A stretch of DNA of 64,000 bases from Candidatus Omnitrophota bacterium (lineage in GTDB: Bacteria > Omnitrophota > Gorgyraeia > Zapsychrales > Fredricksoniimonadaceae): contig JAGWKL010000004.1 in NCBI GenBank assembly GCA_028865345.1, positions 8,457 to 72,456 of the forward strand, given 5' to 3'. Position 1 is the stretch's first letter, and every line of letters starts with the position of its first letter. Below the pieces are notes generated by a model that saw only the letters and a program-made list of their open reading frames with translations, searched no databases and was not told the origin of the DNA. The position numbers and the translations under genes are program-made. Of the stretch, positions 10,403 through 64,000 are shown in pieces.

Positions 10403-10727
10403 TGATGACCCCCCTGGAATCTTGATGATAATCCGCCCAGTAACCATATTTACCGGGCTTCAGCGGCCCGATATAAACCATGATCTTTTGACGGCCTTTG
10501 ACGACCTGCTCGCGGTCCAGGTCGAAACTTTCAAACTCTTCGGGAGTTGGGTCTTGATTATCGACCGTTATTTGCAGCTTCTTGGCGGCAGGGACGTTCA
10601 GCACCGGAGGGATAAATTGATGGTTTTTAATGACAATCGTGTCCGGCCGATCGGCGCCGGAGGATTGGGCCAGGCACAGGGTCGGACAACACACACAGAG
10701 ACCGAGAATTAATACGCTAGCTTTCAC
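10392..10727 (-). CDS. Periplasmic cupredoxin-like domain protein (EfeO N-terminal / FtrB-like)
   Basis: Probable GTG start at 10725-10727, giving the signal peptide VKASVLILGLCVCCPTLCLAQS. The mature region TIVIKNHQFIPPVLNVPAAKKLQITVDNQDPTPEEFESFDLDREQVVKGRQKIMVYIGPLKPGKYGYW matches the cupredoxin-like fold pattern. It has no Cys ligand for a type-1 copper site. Confidence 0.4.
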   Translation of the reverse strand: MKASVLILGLCVCCPTLCLAQSSGADRPDTIVIKNHQFIPPVLNVPAAKKLQITVDNQDPTPEEFESFDLDREQVVKGRQKIMVYIGPLKPGKYGYWADYHQDSRGVINAQ

Positions 10728-20288: not shown

Positions 20289-20687
20289 TTAATTGCCTCG
20301 TTGAGGGACCAGGGACAACATCAGGCGGATGGCTTTCAAGATATCTTCGATCTGGCAAGGCTTGGCCAAATAATGGTCGGCTTGAAGGTCCACGCCTTTT
20401 CTAAAACTTTCCAGGTCGCCTTGGGCCGAAACAATGATGACCGGCTGCCAGCGCTTGACCGGAGGGTTTTGGCGCAGCCGGCTCAACACCGCCCATCCGT
20501 CCATTTTCGGCATGTTCAAATCCAGAATGATCACGTCCGGCAGCCCGCTGTTGATCTTGTTCCACGCATCTTCGCCGTCACGGGCGGCAATGACTTCGTA
20601 GCCCTGGGAGGCGATCTTGCGGGCCATGATCTCAACGGCCGCCTCTTCGTCATCAGCTATCAGTATTTTGATCACCGCAGGATTCAT
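20289..20687 (-). CDS. Single-domain response regulator (REC only)
   Basis: KILIADDEEAAVEIM...DVIILDLNMPKMDG...AKP. Phospho-acceptor Asp and the conserved Lys are present. Confidence 0.8.
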   Translation of the reverse strand: MNPAVIKILIADDEEAAVEIMARKIASQGYEVIAARDGEDAWNKINSGLPDVIILDLNMPKMDGWAVLSRLRQNPPVKRWQPVIIVSAQGDLESFRKGVDLQADHYLAKPCQIEDILKAIRLMLSLVPQRGN

Positions 20688-21166
20688 CTGGCCGACGAGT
20701 AATTTTTTAAATCGTAATGGATTGATTTTGGGGGCATGTCAATGCGGTCGATGGCAACAGAGGCCTTGCCGAAGAAATCAACGGCCATGGTATCGTGAAA
20801 ATCGGAAAACACCACCACCCTTTTGACCCCCGCCGTGATCAGGGCTTTGGCGCAGGTGGTGCAGGGCATGTTGGTCACATAAGCCGTGGCGCCTTCGACG
20901 GCATGGCCGCGCCTGGCGGCCTGGACGATGGCATTCATCTCGGCGTGCACCGTGCGGACACAGTGGTTGTCGACCAGCAGGCAGCCCACATCTTCGCAAT
21001 GCGCGTCCCCGGGAATGGAACCGTTGTAGCCGGTGGCGATGACGTTCTTGTTCTTGACAAGCACCGCGCCGCAATGCATGCGCGGACAGGTGGCGCGTTC
21101 AGAGGCGAGCATCGCCAATTTCATGAAATACTCATCCCAATCAGGTCTTTTGGCCATAATATTCAT
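20684..21166 (-). CDS. dCMP deaminase (ComEB / cytidine-deoxycytidylate deaminase family)
   Basis: Zinc-binding motifs HAEMNAI and PCTTCAKAL. An ATGA overlap joins it to the downstream response regulator. Confidence 0.8.
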   Translation of the reverse strand: MNIMAKRPDWDEYFMKLAMLASERATCPRMHCGAVLVKNKNVIATGYNGSIPGDAHCEDVGCLLVDNHCVRTVHAEMNAIVQAARRGHAVEGATAYVTNMPCTTCAKALITAGVKRVVVFSDFHDTMAVDFFGKASVAIDRIDMPPKSIHYDLKNYSSAR

Positions 21167-21178
21167 CTTAACAAATTC

Positions 21179-22348
21179 TTATATTTTACCAAGTCTTTTC
21201 ATGATACAGGCAACTGCCTCTTGAAAAACAGCCGGCTCAGGCAAAAGGCTTAAAACGATAAAAGCTTCGCCGGTAAAATCAAAGAAATATCCCGGGTGGA
21301 CCAACACATGGTCTTCTTTCAGGAATTCCAGCACCCACTCCTCTTCTGATTTCACCGCGGGAATGCGCAAGGTGGCATACCATCCGCCCTGCAAGGAAAG
21401 CAACTGCGTATTTTTATTTAAATGGGCCGACAGCCACTTGTGGTTTTCCCTGACCCTGGCCATGATCTGTCCCTGGATGGCGGAAGCCTGGGCCAGCCAG
21501 GGGCTTAAGGCATTCTGCACCGGCGTATTGACGGATAAATACGTGTCCGCGATGATCTCAAGGCGCGCAAAGGCTTCCAGCAAGGCGGCTTCGGGGCCTG
21601 AGCCCAAGATCCAGGAACATTTCATCTGCGGCAGCCCCAGGGTCTTTGACAGCCCCCCCAGCACAAAGGTCAAAACAGGCTGGTTGCCGATACAACTGAC
21701 CGCACCCGCCGGCTGCAAGGCATATTCGAAGAAAACTTCGTCGGAAATAATGCTCAATTGGTGTGTGCGGCAAATATCATTTAAGGCGTTTAATTCATCG
21801 TGGTTGATATAGGATCCCGTGGGATTGTTGGGATTGACTAAAACGACGGCGCGGGTTCGGTCATCGATCAGACGCTTCAGGCCCTGCATATCCACGTGCC
21901 ATTGCCCGTCGTAATTAAGGGGGTAATAATCAAAATGGATGTCATTAAGCTCCAGCAAAAATTGGAACAACGGATAACTGGGCTGAGGAATGAGGATTTT
22001 CTCAGCCGGATCGGCCAACAACCTCATTAAGAACGAGTAGGCCTCGGAGGTGCCGGCGGTCAAAATGATATGGTCGACGGATACGGGCAGATTCTGGCGG
22101 GCATAATACGCGGCCAGGGCCTGGCGGGCCTCCGCCATGCCGCAGGCATCAGGCCGGTATCGGAGATTTTCCGGCGAGTTTAAGGCCGTCAGAAGCCCTT
22201 CAGGGTAAACGAAGCCGCAGCCCGTCGGATTGGAAGCCGTGAGGTCCAGCACACGGGCTTCACGGGCTCTAAGCTGATCCAGGATCCTGTCCAGGGCGTT
22301 GGTTTCCCGCGGCCAAGCGGTCCGGCGGGAAAATTTATATTTGTCCAT
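21179..22348 (-). CDS. PLP-dependent aminotransferase, class I/II
   Basis: Fold-type I layout with a Lys-containing segment SKTLGLPQMKCSW. About 389 aa. Confidence 0.7.
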   Translation of the reverse strand: MDKYKFSRRTAWPRETNALDRILDQLRAREARVLDLTASNPTGCGFVYPEGLLTALNSPENLRYRPDACGMAEARQALAAYYARQNLPVSVDHIILTAGTSEAYSFLMRLLADPAEKILIPQPSYPLFQFLLELNDIHFDYYPLNYDGQWHVDMQGLKRLIDDRTRAVVLVNPNNPTGSYINHDELNALNDICRTHQLSIISDEVFFEYALQPAGAVSCIGNQPVLTFVLGGLSKTLGLPQMKCSWILGSGPEAALLEAFARLEIIADTYLSVNTPVQNALSPWLAQASAIQGQIMARVRENHKWLSAHLNKNTQLLSLQGGWYATLRIPAVKSEEEWVLEFLKEDHVLVHPGYFFDFTGEAFIVLSLLPEPAVFQEAVACIMKRLGKI

Positions 22349-23033
22349 GGGCCTGTTTAAGACGGGTCAATTCCTGCTCTTTGGCGGCAAAAGCCTTCTT
22401 TAATTCATCGAATTCGCTTTTGGCCACCCACTGAATGTCTTCGCGCTTTTCTTTCAGTTGGACGCATTGGGCCTTTAAGGTGCGGATTTCCCCGGCGTTG
22501 GCTTGAAGGGTGGTCTGTTGGCTGGTGACCTTGACGGATAACTGGCGCTTTTCTTCGATGATCTGCTCGTGTTTGATCTTAATCTCCTGCAATTCACGCT
22601 CCAGGCGAAGGCGATGGGAATGTTCTTTTTCCAGATCGCCCTCCGTGCGGAAAATCTGGTCTTTTAAATCTTTTTCATGCCGCTTGGATTTCTCCAGGGT
22701 GTCCTGCTCCTTTTCACGCCAGCTTTTTTCCAGCGCCAATTTTTCGGTCAGGTCCTTGACCTGGGCCTTTTGTTCATCAACAGCCTTCTGAAAGCCGCGC
22801 TGGTCCATTTTCATCTTTTCAATTTCCCCCTGCAGGGATTGGTTATGCCGCTCCCAGCGCTCGGCAATGGATTTCCAGTCCCTGGTTTCGGTTGCGGGAC
22901 CGGGCGCCGGCACAGGCCTTCTTTCTTTTTCCTTTTTCTTCTTGGGTCTGACGGCAGGGTCCGCCGGCAACAGGTAAATGACAAGGCCCAAGACCACTAA
23001 AACCACAAAACACCAAATCATGATCCAGAACAT
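22335..23033 (-). CDS. Membrane-anchored coiled-coil protein
   Basis: N-terminal transmembrane helix MFWIMIWCFVVLVVLGLVIYLL. It is followed by a basic Pro-rich linker and about 170 aa of heptad-rich charged sequence. Confidence 0.5.
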   Translation of the reverse strand: MFWIMIWCFVVLVVLGLVIYLLPADPAVRPKKKKEKERRPVPAPGPATETRDWKSIAERWERHNQSLQGEIEKMKMDQRGFQKAVDEQKAQVKDLTEKLALEKSWREKEQDTLEKSKRHEKDLKDQIFRTEGDLEKEHSHRLRLERELQEIKIKHEQIIEEKRQLSVKVTSQQTTLQANAGEIRTLKAQCVQLKEKREDIQWVAKSEFDELKKAFAAKEQELTRLKQAHGQI

Positions 23034-23077
23034 AAGATTCCTTTGGGATAATATGATGCATCAAAATACCACAGAAC

Positions 23078-24481
23078 TCAATGAAAGGCAAAAGTGTTTG
23101 AAATAGCGCCCCGCCCCAAGACCCGTTCATTTTGGGACCAATCCGATGAAATGTGTTTAAGATAGCGCAGATAAAAATCTTTCGCCGGTTTACTTTTCGC
23201 TTTCCGGGCATACGCGCTGAAGATCGCATAGGCCCTTTTAAAATGCCCCTGTGCCAGCTGCGGCCGGCCGTCGGCATAATACGCCTTGGCCAAAAGCCAA
23301 TGCCCGCGCCCGAAATTGGGTTCAAATTGGAGCGTGCGTTCGAACAAAGCCGTTTCACTGCGCCAAAACGTATTTTGATGCCAGGTCAACAAAAGGCAGG
23401 TGATGATGACAAGGCCCGCCAACGGCCTGGCCGAAGATTTCAGAAAATGGTCGCCGGCCGCCACGGCGATGATCAAAATACCGACGATGGGCAAGTATAA
23501 GAAATGTTCGGGGGTCAATATGAACGAATACTCGTTGACCAGGGGGACGATGTTTAAGACCGGGAGTAACGCGGCCAGGAACCATCCCAATCCCAGAAAC
23601 AGCGTTCCTCTGGCCGCAGGCCAACGTTTGCAGACATAAAGAATAGCCAAGAGCGCCATGAACAAAACCGTCCAGGCTAAGCCATCGGGCTGCAGAATAT
23701 CCGTGCTGCGGTAATAATGAAGGCCGTAAGGGAAAAATATCAGCCGCACGTACATCCCTATGTCCCTTGGGATCGCGGCCAGGCGCAAACACAATTCACC
23801 GGGGGAGGCCATGATGGCGCCCAGAAGTGACGCCCCGGTCACGATACGGCGCCCGATGAGCAAGGCGCCGGCAGCCAGGGCAAAAAGGCCCCAGGCGCGA
23901 AAATCCTTCCGCCCGCGCCAGCAGTCAATGACCACGACAAGGGGCACAAACAGCAACGCCTGTTCCTTGCCCAAACATGCCGTCACAAAACATAATAAAG
24001 CGGCCGCATACCATTTGTTAAGATACGCATGGAGCGCCAATAAAACACCCATGGCCATCCAAAGATTGGAGATTCCGGAAATGCAGCTGACCGCCTCGGT
24101 CTGCACCGGATGGACCAGGAAAATACAGGCCACCACCCAAGCCGCCCCCCTCTTGAAGCCCAATTTTTCCAGAAGTCCGAAAAGCAAAAGGCCGTTGACC
24201 GTGTGCACGATCACATTCAGCAGATGAAAACCAAAAGCATGGGGGCCGAAAAGGCGGTATTCAAGGCGGTACAGGACCTCTAATAACGGGCGGTAATAGG
24301 TGTTAAGTCCGGCCGCGACCTTGGGCGCCTGAAAAGCCCCGTACCAATGCCCGAGGTCCGCGATGTGCGGGTTACGGAGGATAAAAATGACGTCGTCATG
24401 GACGAAAGGATGCCGCAGGGCGTTACAAAAGGCAAGCAATCCGAAGAAAAACAGCGACAAAAAGCAACCGGCAGTACTCAT
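23078..24481 (-). CDS. GT-C-fold glycosyltransferase-like polytopic membrane protein with C-terminal TPR region (PMT/ArnT-like)
   Basis: At least 10 transmembrane helices with conserved acidic residues in the first loop (FVHDDVIF). The C-terminus has TPR-like repeats (WLLAKAYYADGRPQLAQGHFKRAY). The start was moved to MSTAGCFL (24479-24481) to remove the overlap with the Hpt gene. Confidence 0.5.
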   Translation of the reverse strand: MSTAGCFLSLFFFGLLAFCNALRHPFVHDDVIFILRNPHIADLGHWYGAFQAPKVAAGLNTYYRPLLEVLYRLEYRLFGPHAFGFHLLNVIVHTVNGLLLFGLLEKLGFKRGAAWVVACIFLVHPVQTEAVSCISGISNLWMAMGVLLALHAYLNKWYAAALLCFVTACLGKEQALLFVPLVVVIDCWRGRKDFRAWGLFALAAGALLIGRRIVTGASLLGAIMASPGELCLRLAAIPRDIGMYVRLIFFPYGLHYYRSTDILQPDGLAWTVLFMALLAILYVCKRWPAARGTLFLGLGWFLAALLPVLNIVPLVNEYSFILTPEHFLYLPIVGILIIAVAAGDHFLKSSARPLAGLVIITCLLLTWHQNTFWRSETALFERTLQFEPNFGRGHWLLAKAYYADGRPQLAQGHFKRAYAIFSAYARKAKSKPAKDFYLRYLKHISSDWSQNERVLGRGAISNTFAFH

Positions 24482-24494
24482 GGGCCGCTTAGCC

Positions 24495-24848
24495 TCAGAC
24501 CCCCAAGTCCTTTTTAAAACGGGCGGAAAAAGATTTGATCTCTTCAAAATACCCATCGATGGATGAAGCCACCCCTTGCATGCCGTCGGTCTTATTTTCC
24601 TTGGCCAGGGTCTCCAATTGAAGGCAGGCGGCATACATGGGCTTGGCGGAAATGTTCCCGGAGGCCCCCTTCATGGAATGGGCGACCTCCTTGATCTTGG
24701 CGATATCTTGGGCAGCGATGGCTTCTCCCAGGGCTTTGCGTTTGATCACAAAATCTTCAATATAAATGTCAAGAAGTTCATTCAGCAATTCCTTGTCGTC
24801 CTGCACGCGTTCCAATACGTCCTTTAGATCAATGATCTCTTCACTCAT
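24495..24848 (-). CDS. Hpt (histidine phosphotransfer) domain protein
   Basis: Hpt signature AHSMKGASGNISA with the conserved His. 117 aa. Confidence 0.7.
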   Translation of the reverse strand: MSEEIIDLKDVLERVQDDKELLNELLDIYIEDFVIKRKALGEAIAAQDIAKIKEVAHSMKGASGNISAKPMYAACLQLETLAKENKTDGMQGVASSIDGYFEEIKSFSARFKKDLGV

Positions 24849-24894
24849 ATAGACCTTTCATTAATTTTTCCCGCCCGGTACGGCGGGAACCATA

Positions 24895-26880
24895 TTAATC
24901 CTTCAATCTCCGGGTGACCAGATTGACGATCTCCTCATACAGCAATTGACGGTCGATGGGTTTGGACACGTACCCGTCCATCCCCGCGCCCAGGTATTTT
25001 TCCCTGTCCCCGGCCATGGCGTTGGCCGTCATGGCGATCACCGGCACGTGCAGGCCTGTCTGTTTTTCTTCCCGGCGGATGACCGCCACGGTCTCGACAC
25101 CTCCCAAGACCGGCATGCTGTCATCCATCAGGATCACATCGAAAGTCTGATCGTTCAAAATATTCAATGCCTCCTGGCCGTTGGCGACGGCGGTCACCTG
25201 CCATCCCAATTTCTCCAGGATCTTGATGGCAATGCGTTGGTTGACCATATTGTCTTCCGCCAACAAAATACGCAAATGGTGCAGTTCCGGCGGAAGCGAA
25301 GAGCCTGCAGGCTGGTCGCCTGCTTTTTGCTCACCGGCGCCATGGCCGAACACATCAGCTTTATACCCGAAAATGATGTTAAATCGAAATGTGCTGCCTT
25401 CGCCTTCCTTACTGTCGACCTCAATGGACCCCCGCATCATCTCCACGATCTTTTTACAGATGGCCAACCCCAGGCCGGTGCCTCCATAACGCCTGGCCGT
25501 GGTATTATGCGCGTCGGTAAACACATCGAAAATATGGGGCAAATTCTTGGGCGAAATGCCGATGCCGTTATCAATGACCTCGAAGGCCAGCTCGCAATCT
25601 TTTTCTCCCTGCGATTTTACCTTGACATTGACGGTCACCTTGCCTTTATGGGTGAACTTGACGGCATTGTTGACCAAATTCACAAGGACCTGGCGGAGTC
25701 TGACGGGATCGCCGATCAAGAGCCTCGGCGTGGCCGGGTCGATGGACCAGACAACATCGATCCCTTTGTTCCTGGCCAGGACCATCAACCCCTTACATAC
25801 ATTCTTGACGATGTCAGGCACATTGATCTCGATTTCTTCAACCACCACCTTTCCCGCCTGGGCGCGGGAAAGATCAAGGATGTCATTGATGAGGGAGAGC
25901 AAGTTGTCGGCTGCATCCTTAGCCACCTTCAAATTATCTATTTGTTCCTCATTCAAAGAGGTGTCGAGCGTCAGGTCGATCATGCCGATAATGGCATTCA
26001 TGGGCGTGCGCACTTCGTGCGACATCTTGGCCAGAAAAACGCTTTTGGCATTATTGGCCTCTTCCGCGGCGAGCTTCGCCTGCACGATCAATTCTTTGGC
26101 ACGCTTTTGCTCGGTAATGTCCTGCAGCATCCCCACGGAACCGACAATGTTGCCCTGCTCATCCTTAAGGATGTTGACCGACAAATCCACATCGATGATG
26201 GTGCCGTCTTTGCGCATGGCCCTGGTTTCCAAATGGTGTTTAAAGCCGCTTTGGCGTATGTTCAACGAACGAATGGCTTTCCATTCCTCAGGCGGGTACA
26301 AGGTGTTGACGGGTCTCAACAGCAGGTCCTTGACGCCCATGCCGAAAAGCTGCTCGGCAAATTTGTTCCAGGAAACGATCCGCTCCTTTTCGTCCGTCAT
26401 GGTGATGGCCGCGGCGGAGTTGTCCAAAATGATCCTCAATTTATTCTCCGACTCACGCATCTGGTGCTCGGCCAATTTTTCGCGCGTAATATCATACAAA
26501 ATGCCGATAGACCCGACCACCCGGCCGCTTTTGTCTTTTAAAACGGAAATGGAGGCGCTGACATCCAGCAGGGACCCGTCCTTACAGATGACCTTGGTGT
26601 CGATGTTGGAAAGCATACCGTGATGGCGGATGTTCAACGAACGAAACCGCTTCCATTCCTTGGGAGGGTACAGGATGCTGACAGGCTGGTTGAATAAATC
26701 CGCCCTGCTCATGCCCAGCATCTTCTCGGCCATGGGGTTCCAGGCCACAATACGCTCCTTGCTGTCGGTCACGGTGATGGCGGAGGGGGAATTGTCAAAA
26801 ACAATCTTAAAAAGCTGTTTGGACTCGATTAAATCCTGCTCAATTTGCTGCTCGATCTTGAAATCCCTGGATTTTTTCAT
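24895..26880 (-). CDS. Hybrid sensor histidine kinase (PAS-PAS-HisKA-HATPase-REC)
   Basis: Two PAS modules are present. H-box MSHEVRTPMNAI. N/G boxes DNGIGI...GGTGLGLAI. C-terminal receiver LLAEDNMVNQ...VILMDDSMPVLGG. Confidence 0.85.
   Translation of the reverse strand: MKKSRDFKIEQQIEQDLIESKQLFKIVFDNSPSAITVTDSKERIVAWNPMAEKMLGMSRADLFNQPVSILYPPKEWKRFRSLNIRHHGMLSNIDTKVICKDGSLLDVSASISVLKDKSGRVVGSIGILYDITREKLAEHQMRESENKLRIILDNSAAAITMTDEKERIVSWNKFAEQLFGMGVKDLLLRPVNTLYPPEEWKAIRSLNIRQSGFKHHLETRAMRKDGTIIDVDLSVNILKDEQGNIVGSVGMLQDITEQKRAKELIVQAKLAAEEANNAKSVFLAKMSHEVRTPMNAIIGMIDLTLDTSLNEEQIDNLKVAKDAADNLLSLINDILDLSRAQAGKVVVEEIEINVPDIVKNVCKGLMVLARNKGIDVVWSIDPATPRLLIGDPVRLRQVLVNLVNNAVKFTHKGKVTVNVKVKSQGEKDCELAFEVIDNGIGISPKNLPHIFDVFTDAHNTTARRYGGTGLGLAICKKIVEMMRGSIEVDSKEGEGSTFRFNIIFGYKADVFGHGAGEQKAGDQPAGSSLPPELHHLRILLAEDNMVNQRIAIKILEKLGWQVTAVANGQEALNILNDQTFDVILMDDSMPVLGGVETVAVIRREEKQTGLHVPVIAMTANAMAGDREKYLGAGMDGYVSKPIDRQLLYEEIVNLVTRRLKD
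26221..26812. repeat. Intragenic tandem duplication (two PAS-encoding units about 371 bp apart)
   Basis: 26259-26315 and 26630-26685 are about 80% identical (ATGTTCAACGAACGAA..CCATTCCT..GGGTACA.GGTG.TGAC). Similarity continues for about 100 bp further along each copy. Confidence 0.5.
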
Positions 26881-57518: not shown

Positions 57519-57553
57519 AAAAAACCCTCTGTAGCCTTTCGGCCACAGAGGGT
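57519..57553 (-). terminator. Rho-independent terminator of cspA
   Basis: Minus strand: CCCTCTGTGGCC-GAAA-GGCTACAGAGGG, a 12-bp stem with one mismatch, followed by TTTTTTAT. Confidence 0.75.
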
Positions 57554-57577
57554 TTGTAAATATAAGAAATCAAATTC

Positions 57578-57778
57578 TTATATTTTAACCACGTTTTGGG
57601 CTTGTTCACCCTTAGGGCCGGTGACAATTTCGAACTCGACGTCCTGTCCTTCGCCTAACGATCTGTAGCCGTCACCCTGAATGGCGGTGTGATGCACGAA
57701 GACATCCTTACCGTTTTCGGGAGTGATGAATCCAAAGCCTTTTTGGTCATTGAACCACTTTACTTTACCTTTTACCAT
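57578..57778 (-). CDS. cspA: Cold-shock protein (CspA family)
   Basis: [16 protein letters not shown] (RNP1) and VFVHH (RNP2). 66 aa. Confidence 0.9.
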
Positions 57779-57920
57779 AAATCTTTAAAACCTCCTTTTA
57801 ATCGAACTTTAAGCTCTTCACTGACCTGTCCCCAGACTCGGGAACCTATAAAAAAACCGCCACGCGCCCAAACCTGCCAGACACATTGCGGTGCTTTCAG
57901 ATCAGAAGAACTTGGGCATT

Positions 57921-57948
57921 AGTATACATACTTTAATTGTTTTGTCAA
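57921..57948 (-). promoter_or_regulatory. Candidate sigma70 promoter of cspA with long (about 135 nt) 5' UTR
   Basis: Minus strand: TTGACA, a 16-nt spacer, then TATACT. The resulting leader of about 135 nt is typical of cspA genes. Confidence 0.4.
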
Positions 57949-58682
57949 ACTAATTGTTTCTTCAAATCCCCCTTCTGATTTTTTTGACGGTACTGGCTGG
58001 GGCTCAAATCCGTCATTTTTTCGAACATGCGGATAAACGACTCCAAATTCTGATAGCCGAGCCGGTTAGCGATTTCCGTGACCGTATAATCCGATTTTCT
58101 TAGAAGTTCGCCGGCCCGGTTGATCTTGACGGAAAGCCGGTACTCATTGAAACTCTGACCGCAGATGTTTTTAAAAACACGGCTGAAATATTTCGGGCTC
58201 AAACAGATCTGCCCCGCCACATCCTTGAGCATGATTTTTTTGTCGAAATTACGGTCGATAAACTGTTTGGCCTGCTCGATCTTGGCATGAATACCGTGGG
58301 TGTAGGTGAAATCTTTCTGGACCTTTAAAGCCAGGGTGGACCGGACCGTTTCCAGGAACTTGGGGATATGGACGGGCTTTTCGATGTAATCATCGGCACG
58401 GCCTTTTAAAGCATCTATGGCGATATCTTTGCTGCTTTGCCCGGTCAGGATGATGATGGCCAGGGAAGGCCTGATCTTCTTGATCTGCCGCAGCACTTCC
58501 GTCCCGGAGATCAAAGGCATGACGGCATCCAGGATCACGAGGTCGATGGCATTGGGCTTCCTCAAAACGGACAGGGCTTCCGCACCATTGGAAGCTTCGA
58601 TGACCTTATAATCATCCAGGCAGCTCCGCAATTCCTCGCGGAACTCCGCGTCATCATCCACGATCAAAATTTGATAAGCCAT
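57945..58682 (-). CDS. Response regulator with C-terminal AraC-type HTH domain
   Basis: REC (ILIVDDDAEF...LVILDAVMP) plus an AraC HTH (YFSRVFKNICGQSFNEYRL...). Confidence 0.8.
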   Translation of the reverse strand: MAYQILIVDDDAEFREELRSCLDDYKVIEASNGAEALSVLRKPNAIDLVILDAVMPLISGTEVLRQIKKIRPSLAIIILTGQSSKDIAIDALKGRADDYIEKPVHIPKFLETVRSTLALKVQKDFTYTHGIHAKIEQAKQFIDRNFDKKIMLKDVAGQICLSPKYFSRVFKNICGQSFNEYRLSVKINRAGELLRKSDYTVTEIANRLGYQNLESFIRMFEKMTDLSPSQYRQKNQKGDLKKQLV

Positions 58683-58861
58683 AGTCTTAAAAGGGGCGAA
58701 ACGCCGATCTTTATAGAAAAGCAGCCTTCCCTAAGTATACTTATACATTCCAAAGACACAAGAATATAAAAACAAGCACCCTTCAGCTCGTTCATACGTT
58801 TCCATTTCATGATATACCGGTTGATTAATACGAGGAAAAGTGCAGGCACGCCCATCATGCT

Positions 58862-59308
58862 CTATATCGAGGGAGCATATAATTTTTCGTATTCCTTGAT
58901 GACCTTCTCGCCCCTGTCCCCTGAAACAAATAGACGGCCCTCCAGTACCTGATGCAGGCAGGGCACCACATCCGAACAAATATATTTTTTATTGATATAT
59001 CCCCTGGCCCCGGCCTTCAGGGCCGTGAGCGCGTATTGAAGCTCATCGTAAGCAGACAGGATGACCACCGGAAGGCCCGATCCTTTATTTTTCATGAGCT
59101 CCAGCAACTCAAGGCCGCCTTCCCTGCCTTCCAGCGACATGTCGATAAGCGCAATATCGAAAAGACCCTCCTGGACGGCTTCAAGGAATTCTTTTTTTCC
59201 GCCGGCGATCCGGGCCACCGTAAACAAACCGTCTTCTTCAACGATCTCTTTCATCAATACGGGTATCAAAGGCTCGTCATCCACGATGATAATCTCCTTT
59301 TTAATCAT
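58862..59308 (-). CDS. Single-domain response regulator (REC only)
   Basis: IIIVDDEPLI...DIALIDMSLEG...ILSAYDE. The start is set at the internal ATG 59306-59308. The ORF-track N-terminal extension is non-protein-like. Confidence 0.7.
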   Translation of the reverse strand: MIKKEIIIVDDEPLIPVLMKEIVEEDGLFTVARIAGGKKEFLEAVQEGLFDIALIDMSLEGREGGLELLELMKNKGSGLPVVILSAYDELQYALTALKAGARGYINKKYICSDVVPCLHQVLEGRLFVSGDRGEKVIKEYEKLYAPSI

Positions 59309-59537
59309 AAATCCCTTTCTTATCGTTGGGGACAGTCCCTCGCTAATATAAAAATCCCTTAACATAAGAGACTTTAAGTTTACCGGTAACTTCAAAAATG
59401 TACATGGTCTGTTTCCACTTTTTACTGCCTTTTTTCTACCTAATATTTCCCATCCGCCGCACACACCAAAAAGGGGACACTTAACGACGTGTCCCCTTTC
59501 TCCAGCCGGCGGCATACCTTTTGTCTCGCCGCCTTAT

Positions 59538-59987
59538 TTATGTCATGTCGGTTTCGTATTCCTCCTCACGTTTGCCCAAAGCAAATTCGATCTTGGTGAT
59601 CAGATTAAGCGGCCTGAACGGCTTGAGGATCGAAGTTTTTATACCGCATAATTTCATCATCAGAAAATGCTGCTTCTCGGTGAAAAAACCTGTCATGGCG
59701 ATCACGGGCACATCTTTGAGCACGATCGAGTTCCTGGCCTCGTCCGCGATTTGAAAACCGCTTTTGGGGCTCATTTTCAAATCCAGCAGGATAAGGTCCG
59801 GTTTGTTTTTAAGCGCGGTCTCAAGGACTTGGGTGCCGTCGCTGATGGCAGCCACGTCATAACCCCCCAATTTTAACAGGTTCTCAAGCTCTTCCAGGAG
59901 CTCAACATTATCATCTACGATCATGATCAACGGCTTACTTCTCGGCGTTTGTTGTTCCTGTTGAGGTTCGAGGATAGTAGACACCAT
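59538..59987 (-). CDS. Single-domain response regulator (REC only)
   Basis: IMIVDDNVELLEELE...LILLDLKMSPKSG. AAGGAG ribosome-binding site. Confidence 0.75.
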   Translation of the reverse strand: MVSTILEPQQEQQTPRSKPLIMIVDDNVELLEELENLLKLGGYDVAAISDGTQVLETALKNKPDLILLDLKMSPKSGFQIADEARNSIVLKDVPVIAMTGFFTEKQHFLMMKLCGIKTSILKPFRPLNLITKIEFALGKREEEYETDMT

Positions 59988-60111
59988 AATGCAACTCCTT
60001 CTTTGGCCCCGTGCTTAGCGCGGGAGGCATTTTTTCTAAAAATGGGGAAATCAACTTCTGCCTACAGGATATCTTAGATGAGAGGAAACGACAATGGCGC
60101 CAATCCGCCTT

Positions 60112-60516
60112 TTACTGACCTTTTTCCACCAATAATGCCAATTGCTTGACCCTGCCGACGAAATTTTCCACCATGAAAGGCTTATTGATCACGATGTCCG
60201 CCAAGTTAAGGACCCTTTCTTCTTCGTCGGTGGAAACGCCCTCCACGCTCAAAAGCGGATCGCCCAGGGGCCGGCCTGAAAGGACAAGGACTTTAGGGCG
60301 ATAGGACATCCCCACAATTCCCTTCAGCACGCCGTAACCGTTGATGCCCGGCAGGCGCAAATCCAAAATAAGAATTTGATACACGCCTGCCTTCAGGCTA
60401 CCCAAGCCCCGCAGTCCGTCGAGCGCCACATCGACTTCAAAGCCTTCAGCCTCCAGGAGTTCTTTGAGTTCCGCGCACAATTCTTCATCATCATCGATCA
60501 GGAGAAGTTTCAGCAT
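60112..60516 (-). CDS. Single-domain response regulator (REC only)
   Basis: LLLIDDDEELCAEL...ILILDLRLPGINGY. Starts at MLKLLL (ATG 60514-60516) and overlaps the kinase stop by 26 nt. Confidence 0.75.
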   Translation of the reverse strand: MLKLLLIDDDEELCAELKELLEAEGFEVDVALDGLRGLGSLKAGVYQILILDLRLPGINGYGVLKGIVGMSYRPKVLVLSGRPLGDPLLSVEGVSTDEEERVLNLADIVINKPFMVENFVGRVKQLALLVEKGQ

Positions 60517-62932
60517 AGTTATTCCTATGGGCAGGCAGAAAAATGTCGACCGTTGTCCCCTGGCCAAGCCTGCTGTTGATCTCAATCCTGCCTTGGTGCA
60601 TGTTGACCAGTTCATTGCAAATGGTCAGTCCAAGACCCGTGCCTTTGGATTTGCGGGTAAAGAACGGTTCAAAAATTTTGTCCATATCCTCCTGGGCAAT
60701 ACCTGCCCCCGTGTCCTTCACGCTGATCTTGAAGGCGTCCCCTTCACGCCGGGCATCAATGGCCACCTTGCCTGCCGGGCCTATAAAAGACTGGCAGGCA
60801 TTGTTTAGAATATTCACGAAGATCTCGCGTATCTGAGTGCCGTCAGCTTCAATGACGTCGGGGTCGTTGGTGTATTCTTTTTCAAGGACGATCCCTTTTT
60901 CCGCGAAACGGCTCTGTACCGAAGTCACACACTCATCCAGAATCTGAAAGAGATGTACTTGTTCATAATTAGGGATCTTGATGCGCGCGTAACTCAGGAG
61001 ATTGTCGATGATCTGGTTGCCTTCCCAGACTTTTTTTTCAATATTCGCCAAATGCTTATTAGCGCCCAAATCGCTCTTTTCCTTCCTTAGATTATACGCC
61101 GCCAGATGAATGACGCCCAGGGGGTTACGCAACTCATGGGCCACGGTCGCGGCCAAGGTGCCTATGTCCGCCAAGCGGCTGAACTGTTTGAGTTCTTTCT
61201 GTGTCTTAATCAATTCCTTGGAGCGTTCATCCACCATGCGCTCAAGGCTTTCATTGTCCCGCTTTAAAATTGTTTCGGCTTTTTTACGATTGGTGATGTC
61301 CACGACCGAAGCCAGGACCTGCATGCCATGCTCTGTTTCAATGGGCGTCAGGGCGATCTCCACAGGCACATGCCTGCCGTCCTTGGCCAACGCATAAAGA
61401 TCTCTTCCCAGCCCCATGGGCCGGGCCTCCGGGGCCTTGTAGAAACCTTCCCGGAAACCGAGATGATGACTCCGGTACTGCTCAGGAATCAGGGACTCCA
61501 ATTTCATATGCAATAATTCCTCGTGTGTGTAACCTAACAATTTTTCTGTTGCCTGGTTGACCAGCACGATGTCCCCGTCTCTATTGGCCATGATATTGGC
61601 CACGGGAGAAAACTCTACTACCTTCTCGAAGCGTTCCTGATAATATTTCTGCTCGCTGATGTTGCGGTAATTGATGACCACCGCCCCCACCGCCGGTTCA
61701 TGCAAAAGATTGTGTCCTGTACCTTCCAGCCAAACATAGCTGCCATCCTTGCGCCTGGCACGGGCAATGGCATAAGCACGGTTTCCCGGAATCTTGACCA
61801 TCTTCTGGAATTTTTCAATTACAACGGGCAGGTCTTCCGGATGCATAAGGCTTAAGAAACTCTTTCCTAAAAGCTCCCTGGGCTCAAAACCTAAATTGCG
61901 TCTGATCGCAGGGCTGCTGTAAAGAATTTTCGCTTCCACGTCCGTCATGGTGATCCCGTCGAAACTGTTCTCCACAACACTTCGAAAGCGCGCTTCATTA
62001 TGCTTGATATCTTCTTCCGCCTTCTGGCGTTCATAGGAGGCCGCAGCCAGGGAGAGCACCGTCACGGCGACCACACCGATAAAACATTGAATGATCAACA
62101 AATCTACCGCCAGACGTTCACCGACAAAAGGGCCTAAATGATAGATTGACCCAATATCGGCGATGACGGAGGTTGTCAGGATCGAAACGATTGCTCCCGG
62201 AAAACCAAAACGGTAGGTGGCCCATATGGCAAAAGGCAACACCAAGTACGTCACGTGAGAATAGAACCCGTATTCCGGAAACGTCCCCATGAACACTCCG
62301 TAATTGATCCCGGCCAAAACCAGGAACACCACGAAAGCTTCCAGACCGTTTTTGCGAAAATTAATGCGCCATTCTTTTTTATGAAAGGTCAAAAATGGAG
62401 AAGCGATCATCAAGATGCCCACCGTATCCCCTAGCCACCACGTAAACCAAGCCGTATCAAAAGAAACGCCCTGAAACGGAGGATGAAAAAAATAAACGGC
62501 GGACGTTCCTATGGTAGCGCTGGCGGTGCAGGCCACCATGACGGCAAAAATATATTTAAAAATTTCGTCGATTTTGGACAGCAGAACGGTCTGGTCGGTA
62601 AAACTGCGCAGGAGAAAAAGACCTGCCAATGCCTCCGCGCTATTGCCGATGGCGGTCAGGGCCGACACCGAAACAGCCAAAACCGGAGCCCATCCATGAT
62701 GGAGGCAAACCAGCAGATTGGCCCCAAAAGCCCCCAGTAATATGCCGGGCCAGACCCGGTAACCAAAGAAGCAAACGGCGGTAAACGCGATACCCGATGG
62801 GGGCCATATGGGCGAGGCATTGGTCCCCTTAAAAGAGAATTGCAGGGCGCCATACGCCACGAGACCATAAACAACTCCAAGGACAATGGTCCAATAAGGG
62901 GAGTATAATTGTCGTTTGCCGGGTAGGCTCAT
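60491..62932 (-). CDS. Sensor histidine kinase (MASE1 - PAS - PAS - HisKA - HATPase)
   Basis: N-terminal MASE1-type 7-8 transmembrane helix sensor. Two PAS modules. H-box AHELRNPLGVI. G-boxes DTGAGIAQEDMDKIFEPF...GTGLGLTIC. Confidence 0.85.
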   Translation of the reverse strand: MSLPGKRQLYSPYWTIVLGVVYGLVAYGALQFSFKGTNASPIWPPSGIAFTAVCFFGYRVWPGILLGAFGANLLVCLHHGWAPVLAVSVSALTAIGNSAEALAGLFLLRSFTDQTVLLSKIDEIFKYIFAVMVACTASATIGTSAVYFFHPPFQGVSFDTAWFTWWLGDTVGILMIASPFLTFHKKEWRINFRKNGLEAFVVFLVLAGINYGVFMGTFPEYGFYSHVTYLVLPFAIWATYRFGFPGAIVSILTTSVIADIGSIYHLGPFVGERLAVDLLIIQCFIGVVAVTVLSLAAASYERQKAEEDIKHNEARFRSVVENSFDGITMTDVEAKILYSSPAIRRNLGFEPRELLGKSFLSLMHPEDLPVVIEKFQKMVKIPGNRAYAIARARRKDGSYVWLEGTGHNLLHEPAVGAVVINYRNISEQKYYQERFEKVVEFSPVANIMANRDGDIVLVNQATEKLLGYTHEELLHMKLESLIPEQYRSHHLGFREGFYKAPEARPMGLGRDLYALAKDGRHVPVEIALTPIETEHGMQVLASVVDITNRKKAETILKRDNESLERMVDERSKELIKTQKELKQFSRLADIGTLAATVAHELRNPLGVIHLAAYNLRKEKSDLGANKHLANIEKKVWEGNQIIDNLLSYARIKIPNYEQVHLFQILDECVTSVQSRFAEKGIVLEKEYTNDPDVIEADGTQIREIFVNILNNACQSFIGPAGKVAIDARREGDAFKISVKDTGAGIAQEDMDKIFEPFFTRKSKGTGLGLTICNELVNMHQGRIEINSRLGQGTTVDIFLPAHRNNYAETSPDR

Positions 62933-63051
62933 TTTTTTAGTATACTATCAAGGAAGATGTTTATGCAATGACTTGCTTTTCATAAACAAATATTTTATAT
63001 TCTTCCTCGTCTCCGGTTGAACTCGCCGCGGCGGATTCAGCTCAGGCCTTT

Positions 63052-63438
63052 CTATAGATAATGTTGTATCCTCTTGAGTACCACGCTGTCCGCCTGTTTG
63101 TCCGGGGCCATGCCGACGCGCACCTGGACCGAGCTTTCCTTTTCACTCACCCGGCGGATGTCAATCCATATTTCACGTCCATCTGTATAGGTGCTTTTGA
63201 GCTGGGTGACATTGGTTTCATTGACCTCTTTGACGAGGGGAAGGTTCAACGAACGCAGCGCAGCCTTGACGCCGTTGATGGTGTCATGATATGAAGCATG
63301 GAAATCCTGGGACAGTTTCCCGGAAAGCCAGATCGCGGTGCCCGCCCCGCCCACCACTCCTGCAAACAGGGCAAAACAACCGCATAGATTCATCGTCAGC
63401 ATCCCTACCAGCAGGACATACACAATTCTTTTGTTCAC
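63052..63438 (-). CDS. Lipoprotein of unknown function
   Basis: Probable GTG start giving (M)NKRIVYVLLVGMLTMNLCGC lipobox. About 128 aa. Confidence 0.4.
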   Translation of the reverse strand: MNKRIVYVLLVGMLTMNLCGCFALFAGVVGGAGTAIWLSGKLSQDFHASYHDTINGVKAALRSLNLPLVKEVNETNVTQLKSTYTDGREIWIDIRRVSEKESSVQVRVGMAPDKQADSVVLKRIQHYL

Positions 63439-63503
63439 GATCACCTCCTCTGTTCTAAGGTTGTCTATAAAACCACAAAAATTAAAAAAAGATGAAGTCA
63501 AAA

Positions 63504-64000
63504 TTAATTCTGGACCTGCGGGCTATCTTGCCACGCAAGATCGACGGAAGGCAGGACCACTGTGAAGGCGCTCCCCCGACCCGGCCGGCTTTCCACCCGG
63601 ATATCCCCGTCATGGAGACGGGCTATCTTATAGGCAATGCTCAAGCCTAAGCCTCCCTCCGGCATGTCCTTGCCTTCACCGGTAAAGGCCTCAAAAATTC
63701 TTTCTAACTTGTCGGACGCGATCCCGGGGCCCGTGTCGCTGATAAGCCCGATGATCCTGCCGTTGTCTTTTCCGATGTGCGTATCCACACAACCGCCTTC
63801 GGGCGTGAACTTGATGGCATTATCGATAAGGTTAAAAAACAGCCGGCGTAGATGCAGCCTATCGGCCTTGATCATCAGCGGCGGCCTGATATTGTAAAAA
63901 TCCGTCCTGATCCCCACCCCTCTGTTGGCCGCCAGCAGGCGGTTCTGCTCGATGATCTCATTGAAGAATTCGATGAAATCGAAATGCTCGAATTTAAACA
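63504..64000 (-). CDS. Sensor histidine kinase, C-terminal HATPase part (partial; 5' end beyond window)
   Basis: N-box LFFNLIDNAIKFT. G1 DTGPGI. G2 GGLGLSIAYKIARLH. The reading frame stays open to 64000. Confidence 0.75.
   Translation of the reverse strand, partial: FKFEHFDFIEFFNEIIEQNRLLAANRGVGIRTDFYNIRPPLMIKADRLHLRRLFFNLIDNAIKFTPEGGCVDTHIGKDNGRIIGLISDTGPGIASDKLERIFEAFTGEGKDMPEGGLGLSIAYKIARLHDGDIRVESRPGRGSAFTVVLPSVDLAWQDSPQVQN

Follow-up and report, generated by a model that had tools for sequence, protein, structure and literature searches.

The 64-kb stretch of DNA from a Candidatus Omnitrophota bacterium that was analysed here (referred to below as the window, to which all coordinates refer) ends in an island of signalling genes. 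At the core of the island is a cassette of four genes, which encode a MASE1-type sensor histidine kinase, two stand-alone receiver (REC) proteins called REC1 and REC2, and a response regulator composed of a REC and an AraC-type domain (REC-AraC). This cassette is conserved and co-inherited across phyla. The remaining genes do not belong to it, i.e., with high confidence the island is a mosaic of three units rather than a single pathway. A third receiver, REC3, was left orphaned when an in-operon deletion of ~7 kb removed both kinases and one receiver of a second operon, which is concluded with similar confidence. The genes at the window end, encoding a second kinase (HK2) and a putative lipoprotein (DUF3568), are the tail of a separate, classical OmpR-type two-component operon. 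The best overall explanation, in which moderate confidence is placed, combines this three-unit mosaic with a branched cassette that feeds back on itself through a short conserved DNA element, referred to here as the box.

A first-pass annotation of the same DNA had described the region at 57945-64000 as one signalling island. All genes and domains that it named are present on the minus strand (ORF, i.e., open reading frame, listing and Pfam), as are all other island genes and the boxes, promoters and terminators discussed below. As a conserved and co-inherited unit, however, the description holds for the kinase, REC1, REC2 and REC-AraC, while REC3 and HK2 are found outside that unit. The gene order is identical in four independent assemblies of the same population (99.8−99.9% identity to the window, gapless) and the arrangement is therefore real, i.e., not an assembly artefact. 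The MASE1 kinase is 100% identical to a protein of a Candidatus Omnitrophica metagenome-assembled genome (MAG). For comparison, 169 related loci (labelled L001 etc.) were fetched and their ORFs were compared with the window proteins.

The four-gene cassette

In the loci of close orthologues of the MASE1 kinase (55−71% identity), REC1 overlaps the kinase gene and is followed by REC2 and then, where the contig permits, by REC-AraC. One locus (L004) has REC-AraC directly 3' of the kinase, and REC1 and REC2 are absent. More distant loci display the order REC-AraC, kinase, REC1, REC2 (MAGs labelled Elusimicrobia, Endomicrobiales, Ratteibacteria and others) or REC-AraC, kinase, REC1 (Firestonebacteria and Spirochaetes MAGs). 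Here, the kinases harbor the same catalytic core and dimerization and histidine phosphotransfer (DHp) domain, combined with other sensor parts, and range from 400 to 1800 aa. According to the submitters' labels, MAGs with the cassette are assigned to Omnitrophota, Elusimicrobia, Spirochaetes, Firestonebacteria, Ratteibacteria and others. Partners were counted for 85 non-redundant kinases of this DHp family with enough flanking DNA: REC-AraC is found near 42, REC1 near 32, REC2 near 32 and all three near 16 of these kinases. A REC-AraC homologue, where found near a kinase of the family, usually resides immediately upstream.

The window kinase (813 aa, 60491..62932) is composed of MASE1, PAS1, PAS2, HisKA and HATPase_c domains (Pfam). 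The MASE1 match (PF05231, 119.8 bits) covers profile positions 2−299 of 299, and the HisKA and HATPase_c domains score 40.5 and 93.9 bits, respectively. The H-box histidine, His599, is located within the motif VAHELRNP and is invariant across the kinase family, in which the DHp helix is nearly invariant. The PAS2 domain matches the haem-PAS structures of FixL (1d06, E = 2.5e-11) and DosP (E = 1e-9) with the proximal His aligned, and this residue is kept in 10 of 11 close orthologues. It is plausible from these matches that PAS2 is a FixL/DosP-like haem-PAS domain and that O2 or a redox gas is the input in this clade. A putative sigma-70-like promoter of the kinase-REC1 unit (TTGCAT, 18 nt, TATACT) was read from the sequence at 62939..62968, and its TTGC..(G)ATAGTATACT portion is conserved in the alignment with L001 and L006. 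The end of the −10 hexamer is separated from the ATG by 6 nt, and the kinase transcript may thus be leaderless. The hexamer (G)TATACT recurs as a −10 element, including upstream of a cold-shock gene (57948..57921).

REC1 (134 aa, 60112..60516) is a receiver of the OmpR clade without an output domain (Pfam). Translation most likely starts at the ATG at 60516, which is preceded by AGGA as a ribosome-binding site, so that the gene overlaps that of the kinase by 26 nt, in line with the overlap noted in the first-pass annotation. In 56 of 57 loci, the distance from the stop of the kinase gene to the REC1 start is between −29 and +11 nt. From these overlapping genes, REC1 is predicted to be translationally coupled to the kinase and made in a fixed ratio with it. 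There are ~100 stand-alone homologues of REC1, and the next-best matches are OmpR-type regulators with 36−39% identity. The alignment revealed a conserved, family-specific insertion of ~9 residues in the β4−α4 loop. In an AF2 model of REC1 the mean pLDDT (predicted local distance difference test) value is 87.8 and values below 50 are restricted to residues 85−92; the insertion is unstructured. The solved folds nearest to the model are the receivers of CpxR, ArlR and PmrA, i.e., only generic OmpR-family receivers.

REC2 (149 aa, 59538..59987; Pfam) is a stand-alone receiver and, with 78−93% identity where the kinase shows 55−71%, the best conserved of the cassette proteins. A database search (1.84 billion representatives) returned ~40 small clusters of single-REC proteins with 42−61% identity; because most of the matches are multi-REC hybrids with summed scores, the search shows merely a small stand-alone family. 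REC2-like genes are also found ~10 nt upstream of shorter kinases of the same DHp family (L024, L129, L135, L137 and L142), i.e., in an alternative two-gene receiver-kinase arrangement. Downstream of REC2, RNA folding identified an intrinsic terminator, GGGGACAC..GUGUCCCC followed by a U run (59465..59501), with −39 kcal/mol and z = −4.6 relative to shuffles, which was overlooked by a consensus scan. Because this strong terminator follows the gene and a promoter of its own is found upstream, REC2 is considered a separate transcription unit. The REC1-REC2 spacer is devoid of significant RNA structure (z = +1.2).

Two assignments of the stand-alone receivers to known families were rejected. REC2 scores 59.2 bits (REC1 33.3 bits) against the DVU0259/DivK-like family NF045717, for which the cut-off is 160. 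An identification of REC1 or REC2 as a chemotaxis CheY does not agree with the lack of che genes in the island, nor with position 106, which is Val in REC1 and Ser in REC2. The curated family cut-offs of NCBIfam are reached by none of the receivers, nor by the kinase.

The REC-AraC regulator (245 aa, 57945..58682; Pfam Response_reg 91, HTH_18 82 and HTH_AraC 69 bits) is preceded by a putative promoter inferred from the sequence (TTGTGT, 16 nt, TATACT; 58734..58761), of which TTGTG and TATA(C/A)T are conserved in an alignment of four genomes. In L167 and L168 the TATACT is found 7−8 nt before the ATG. The spacers between the genes, which had been given as 120−180 nt, measure 124 nt (REC1-REC2), 229 nt (REC2-REC3) and 179 nt (REC3-REC-AraC). 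Good ribosome-binding sites had been ascribed to these genes, and by eye such a site is clearly recognizable for REC1 and REC2 and moderately so for REC3, but is not evident for REC-AraC.

The residues D12, D13, D57, T/S87 and K109 (CheY numbering) are present in REC1, REC2, REC3 and REC-AraC of the window. These phospho-site residues are invariant or nearly so in 58 REC1, 49 REC2 and 59 REC-AraC sequences; in the REC2 orthologues D12, D13, D57, T87 and K109 are each found in all or all but one of the 49. The aromatic switch position 106 differs between the proteins: it is Tyr or Phe in 59/59 REC-AraC, Val, Ile or Leu in 52/58 REC1 and Cys or Ser in 37/49 REC2 sequences. Pairing with the kinase was assessed at those positions of helix α1 with which receivers contact the DHp domain of their kinase (Spo0F positions 14, 15, 18, 21 and 22, as in Skerker/Laub-type analyses). 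The residues are ELEEL in REC1, ELENL in REC2 and EFESC in REC-AraC, LILEI in REC3, and PEIEA in the receiver of the second operon that is referred to below as module-B. The signature consists of an acidic residue at +3 (nearly all REC1 and REC2, and 41 of 59 REC-AraC), Phe or Leu at +4, and Glu at +7 (163 of 166 sequences).

As judged from these residues, REC1, REC2 and REC-AraC rather probably share one kinase, and REC-AraC is the probable transcriptional output of the MASE1 kinase. The earlier proposal of three receivers behind one kinase thus applies to two, REC1 and REC2, because REC3 stems from another, mostly deleted kinase operon and carries different α1 residues. The same holds for the proposed branched pathway with one AraC-type output, i.e., the shared α1 signature and the synteny fit such a pathway for REC1, REC2 and REC-AraC, with REC3 excluded.

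The box and its candidate binder

The consensus of the box is AAAAGTCAGTAAAAAGCGGA, with a length of 20−28 nt, and the window contains two matches with ≤3 mismatches (0.21 expected), both of them in the island. Box 1 (AAAGGTCAGTAAAAGGCGGA, 60104..60123) overlaps the last codons and the stop of REC1 and is found upstream of the REC2 promoter (−35 TTGTCG, 60094..60089; −10 TATCCT, 60071..60066). Box 2 (AAAAGGCAGTAAAAAGTGGA, 59414..59433) is found upstream of REC3, in what is the promoter region of the second kinase operon in sister genomes. It is followed by −35/−10-like hexamers (ATGTAC, 59405..59400; TAAACT, 59382..59377), which would drive REC3 here.

In an anchored alignment, 69 sites yielded GT(G/A)GAAAAAAGTCA(G/A)(T/A)AAAAAGnGGAAT as a longer form of the box, with −35-like (TTGnCA) and −10-like hexamers in a fixed register downstream. 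In 1.65 Mb of non-redundant loci the box is found 68 times, as compared to 0.4 times in shuffles, and its orientation in the related loci is with the genes in 118 cases and against them in 16. The density per 100 kb is 21 within 1.5 kb downstream of the kinase, 6 just upstream of it and 0.3−2 elsewhere, with values of 0.4−2 for flanking DNA at a distance of >1.5 kb from the kinase. A box is located upstream of 31/48 REC2 genes (at a distance of ≤250 nt), but of 0/57 REC1, 4/55 REC-AraC and 2/122 kinase genes. The second signalling cluster of the window (20289..26880, see below) contains no box.

In the window, the segment 60104..60129 (GTGGAAAAAGGTCAGTAA) encodes V-E-K-G-Q-stop, i.e., the end of REC1, and many homologues end in VEKSQ or VEKGQ. 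In distant clades, as well as in the second copy in the window, the box DNA is non-coding. Because the box supplies the last codons and the stop of REC1, the tail of this protein seems dictated by the cis element. In L004, a box (10472..10491) is found directly after the kinase stop, 107 nt upstream of REC-AraC, and in this locus the regulator could be driven by the box promoter, i.e., it could have acquired positive autoregulation after gene loss. In one clade (L019, L021, L096 and L109) a small gene for a Cys-rich DUF1540 protein is located between the box and REC2, so that a box-driven transcript would begin with DUF1540.

The box comprises 20 bp, is asymmetric, abuts the −35 element and displays two A-tracts that are separated by one helical turn. 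An asymmetric site of this kind, adjoining the −35 element, is what an AraC domain with two helix-turn-helix (HTH) motifs would need, as in MarA-type sites. REC-AraC is suggested as the binder of the box because it is the sole DNA-binding protein of the cassette, because across phyla its recognition helices (SPKY.SR.F and GY.N.ESFIR.F) are, like the box, nearly invariant, and because the site fits a two-HTH AraC domain. The box is thus the predicted operator of REC-AraC, a prediction for which confidence and doubt are about evenly balanced. A comparison of box variants with the recognition helices was uninformative with respect to covariation, since the helices hardly vary. The spacing and the −12/−10 elements, inspected by eye, do not fit a sigma-54, sigma-28 or extracytoplasmic function (ECF) promoter, and these identifications of the box were rejected. 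In a consensus promoter/terminator scan the counts were not above those of shuffles.

Neighboring units of the island and the window

REC3 (148 aa, 58862..59308; Pfam) is a receiver of the NarL clade without an HTH. It has 58 stand-alone homologues of 130−167 aa, 57 of which are 46−72% and one 40% identical, while NarL regulators with a GerE domain reach 28−39% identity. The best NCBIfam matches of REC3 include NarL and MctR, but the GerE domain is absent. A recent truncation of a NarL regulator was rejected as the origin of REC3, given the numerous stand-alone homologues and the lack of an HTH remnant, inspected by eye, in the 179-nt spacer behind the gene.

The second operon, as found in sister genomes, ends with REC3 and also encodes a poly-HAMP hybrid kinase of ~1800 aa, a REC-HisKA-HATPase protein of ~527 aa and the module-B receiver (139 aa). 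This operon resides between REC2 and REC-AraC (L165 and L001, which are from one genome, L167 and L006, and L168), and it is wholly absent in L002, L011 and L090−L094. The REC2-REC3 spacer of the window can be aligned, until ~75 nt before the REC3 start, with the DNA that separates REC2 from the poly-HAMP kinase gene in L001 and L168. A segment of ~25 nt upstream of REC3 weakly resembles the 3' end of the 139-aa receiver gene (13/21 matches by eye), which is suggestive of a deletion junction. Because ~7 kb of the operon was lost here, REC3 now resides behind the promoter of the poly-HAMP operon. In the sister genome GCA_028870995.1 the assembly breaks within the repetitive ~1800-aa poly-HAMP gene (end of L001, start of L165); as the island is split over two contigs, simple synteny checks would miss the second module.

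At the window end, HK2 (63504..64000; Pfam HATPase_c) is the 3' part of a HAMP-HisKA-HATPase kinase that is cut by the window boundary and is 350 aa long in L170−L172, which are 99.8% identical to the window. The last gene of this unit encodes the DUF3568 putative lipoprotein (128 aa, 63052..63438; PF12092, 71 bits), for which the start was taken from the NCBI call in the same population. The first-pass annotation had listed HK2 as a further kinase of the signalling island. Grouping it with the cassette is not supported, given a 224-aa OmpR-type regulator (REC and Trans_reg_C) that is found in L170−L172 directly upstream of HK2, just outside the window. The trio of OmpR-type regulator, HK2 and DUF3568 recurs in L001, L016 and L086, and HK2 therefore belongs to a classical system of its own; the HK2/DUF3568 trio was not found beside the MASE1 kinase in L002 and L004. 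A perfect-consensus copy of the box resides 81 nt upstream of the OmpR-type regulator gene (L170 5189..5208; by extrapolation ~65309..65328, past the window end), and similar copies are found upstream of the corresponding operon in L001, L016 and L086. These boxes suggest that the classical system may be transcriptionally tied to the cassette.

A scan of all window ORFs with hidden Markov models identified six REC-containing proteins, four of which are REC-only, and three kinases. The earlier description of Hpt and stand-alone REC genes at 20289-24848, and of the window as rich in receiver-only proteins, was confirmed by ORFs and domains. This second cluster (20289..26880) contains a PAS-PAS hybrid kinase (24895..26880), the adjacent Hpt gene (24495..24848), two ORFs without a Pfam match, and then genes for an aminotransferase, a deaminase and a REC-only protein (20289..20687). 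One of the Pfam-less ORFs (518 aa, 23078..24634) overlaps the Hpt ORF by 140 nt, while the other (232 aa, 22335..23033) has weak SMC-like matches that suggest a coiled coil. Next to the island, the cold-shock gene with its leader (57522..57850) has a sub-threshold match to the Rfam cspA thermoregulator (63 bits at a gathering score of 78, E = 1.6e-14) and is followed by a strong terminator (57555..57522). This is the sole Rfam match, i.e., no RNA family matches were found in the spacers of the island.

Proposed mechanism, alternatives and related systems

In the proposed mechanism, O2 or a related gas is the probable signal of the MASE1 kinase, perceived via the FixL-like haem-PAS domain, and the kinase autophosphorylates on His599. 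The phosphoryl group would then be passed to REC-AraC, i.e., the output, as well as to REC1 and REC2. Phosphorylated REC-AraC would bind the box and activate transcription of REC2, of the OmpR/HK2 operon and of REC3, the latter from a promoter that formerly served the poly-HAMP operon. The induced REC2 would compete for, or store, phosphoryl groups of the kinase, which would close a feedback loop; the role of REC2 as a feedback element follows if REC-AraC binds the box upstream of the REC2 promoter. REC1, present in a fixed ratio to the kinase, may set a threshold or modulate the response. An input of O2 or a redox gas would fit the oxidative-stress genes that are found behind boxes elsewhere. 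The specific assignment of a sink-type role to REC2 is tentative.

A number of observations weigh against this mechanism or parts thereof. No partner is found near 33 of the 85 kinases of the DHp family. In the specificity-residue check proposed in the first-pass annotation REC1, REC2 and REC-AraC share the signature and REC3 differs, but covariation cannot discriminate between partners because the DHp helix and the α1 contacts of the receivers hardly vary. The MASE1 kinase carries a HE..N motif, which is associated with phosphatase activity, so that a separate phosphate sink is less needed. Furthermore, REC2 has Lys at D+2 and Phe at T+2 of the active site (Phe or Tyr in the family), a pair that resembles that of slow-hydrolysing, long-lived receivers such as Spo0F, and a role as a simple fast sink is therefore disfavored. 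This pair, together with the conservation of REC2 above that of the kinase, suggests that REC2 may be better suited as an effector or reservoir than as a passive fast sink. As regards the box, it is found in 23 of 88 loci without REC-AraC in the fetched DNA (association odds ratio 2.4, p = 0.016). It is also located before DUF1540 genes and, in L034, L046, L113, L055, L068, L099 and L160, before genes for cytochrome c, desulfoferrodoxin, a fused MsrA-MsrB, KaiB, CheD, a PilB-like ATPase, a radical-SAM protein and a PAS-GAF-GGDEF protein. The boxes before such unrelated genes hint at a wider regulon, partly of oxidative stress, and another factor could bind the box.

Some of these observations form the basis of an alternative in which REC1 and/or REC2 are effectors or allosteric modulators that bind the kinase or other targets rather than compete for phosphate, such that REC-AraC would be one of several outputs. 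Precedents for modulation are found in DivK, which binds DivJ/PleC, and in CheY or MrrA hubs, which bind other targets. The high conservation of REC2 relative to the kinase suggests additional interaction surfaces, its D+2 and T+2 residues resemble those of long-lived receivers, REC1 combines an insertion in the switch loop with a fixed ratio to the kinase, and REC2-like genes directly precede other kinases of the family. However, the aromatic switch residue of canonical effectors is missing in most REC1 and REC2, no conserved candidate target gene accompanies them, and induction of REC2 from the box promoter fits feedback equally well; on balance an effector role is possible but somewhat doubtful. 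The same degree of doubt applies to the suggestion that the box is not an operator of REC-AraC but is bound by an OmpR-type or global regulator, or acts as an UP-like promoter element, in which case REC2 expression would be independent of the cassette output. In addition to the boxes at loci without REC-AraC and the diversity of genes behind them, this suggestion is consistent with the two A-tracts one helical turn apart, which resemble UP-element subsites, and with the location of the best box match of this genome upstream of the OmpR operon. On the other hand, the box is enriched 10−50-fold next to kinases of the DHp family, the other 58 kb of the window are devoid of matches, a sequence-specific protein is favored by the conservation of G/C positions and by the fixed register, and box-bearing REC2 promoters are found in phyla that harbor REC-AraC but no OmpR gene nearby.

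A phosphorelay of the Spo0F type, i.e., from the kinase via REC1 or REC2 and a His-phosphotransferase to REC-AraC, would account for the stand-alone receivers that adjoin the kinase, the Spo0F-like D+2/T+2 pair of REC2 and the presence of an Hpt gene in the window. It is nevertheless very unlikely, since this sole Hpt of the window resides 34 kb from the cassette, beside its own hybrid kinase. Neither the island nor the Pfam-annotated cassettes of close relatives contain an Hpt or Spo0B-like gene, nor did one come to notice among the wider set of loci, which was not screened for Hpt. In addition, REC-AraC displays the α1 signature of REC1 and REC2, as would be anticipated if all three received phosphoryl groups directly from one DHp domain. 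The least probable of the explanations considered is a chance neighborhood of independent signalling genes, in which the partner of each receiver would be an orphan kinase at a distant locus. Clusters of signalling genes that are not functionally linked are frequent, and for REC3, which lacks the kinases of its former operon at this locus, as well as for HK2, which has its own regulator, such a description applies. For the kinase, REC1, REC2 and REC-AraC it is already largely refuted by the synteny across phyla, the REC1-kinase overlap, the shared α1 signature and the cassette-specific cis element.

Full-text literature searches, including one specific to Omnitrophota, found neither the cassette nor the box. 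The logic of the cassette resembles that of DivJ/PleC-DivK/PleD, of CheY sinks, of FixL sensing and of regulators with an AraC output, but the cassette does not show the features by which each of these families is defined. In the Caulobacter DivJ/PleC-DivK/PleD system a kinase serves a single-domain receiver and an output regulator. Likewise, one HisKA kinase is here predicted to phosphorylate a stand-alone receiver and a multidomain output encoded nearby, and the receiver may feed back on the kinase. In contrast to Caulobacter, the output is a REC-AraC transcription factor rather than a GGDEF protein, and the stand-alone receivers number two, of which REC1 is predicted to be translationally coupled to the kinase and REC2 is transcribed separately, without sequence orthology to DivK. 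In the Bacteroides hybrid two-component systems a HisKA kinase drives a REC-AraC output, but both are fused in one polypeptide without auxiliary receivers, while here they are separate genes. The Bacillus YesM/YesN system shares the REC joined to a two-HTH AraC output; however, the kinase of YesN is of the His_kinase type (PF06580) with HAMP, rather than of the HisKA type with MASE1 and PAS domains. As in FixL/FixJ and DosP, the sensor domain, here PAS2, aligns with haem domains and retains the proximal His, and haem binding is predicted. The differences from FixL/FixJ are that the partner is AraC-type instead of FixJ/NarL-type and that the kinase also contains MASE1 and a second PAS domain, and unlike FixL and DosP, more distant members of the cassette carry other sensor domains.

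Phosphate-sink receivers have been described in Sinorhizobium meliloti, i.e., CheA-CheY1/CheY2, and in the Che3 system of Rhodospirillum centenum (PMC3868531). As predicted here, additional CheY-like receivers are served by the kinase of the true output and could thereby draw off phosphoryl groups. The cassette differs in the lack of a context of CheA, CheW or methyl-accepting chemotaxis proteins, in the active-site neighbors of REC2, which predict slow instead of fast hydrolysis, and in the apparent induction of REC2 through a dedicated promoter box. The single-domain receiver MrrA of Caulobacter acts as a hub (PMC5964349). Here too a stand-alone receiver may link several kinases and outputs, and islands of sister genomes carry several kinases, but there is no sign that several kinases feed REC1 or REC2, nor of a partner-switching output. 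In the branched cyanobacterial Hik2-Rre1/RppA system both partners are DNA-binding regulators (PMC4751278). The cassette has in common with this system and with RcaE-RcaF-RcaC that one kinase serves more than one receiver, and it differs from the Rca system in that the latter uses Hpt modules, which are not found in the cassette.

Although genomes commonly encode branched two-component pathways with stand-alone receivers, only a few of these pathways are understood. The cassette is of specialist two-component interest, testable in vitro, and does not represent a new principle. It offers a candidate operator, a candidate signal (O2 via the haem-PAS domain) and predictions for which purified proteins would suffice as a test, so that the lack of cultured hosts is no obstacle. 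Should the box prove to be the operator of REC-AraC, regulons could be predicted from it in candidate phyla for which genetics is lacking. The second operon, a whole kinase module that is present, absent or partly deleted among close genomes, provides a natural experiment in pathway rewiring. A broader interpretation, which at present is more doubtful than likely, is that of a portable, self-contained feedback circuit that is found across phyla. Here, dozens of kinases with different inputs would rely on the same invariant DHp domain, on a single shared operator of 28 nt and on a REC-AraC regulator whose recognition helices are invariant. This operator would mediate the induction of REC2 and, depending on the genome, of additional kinase operons and oxidative-stress genes, and in this clade it would also dictate the last five codons of REC1 (VEKGQ-stop). 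If this interpretation is true, many inputs would converge on one cis-element, with each pathway tuning itself.

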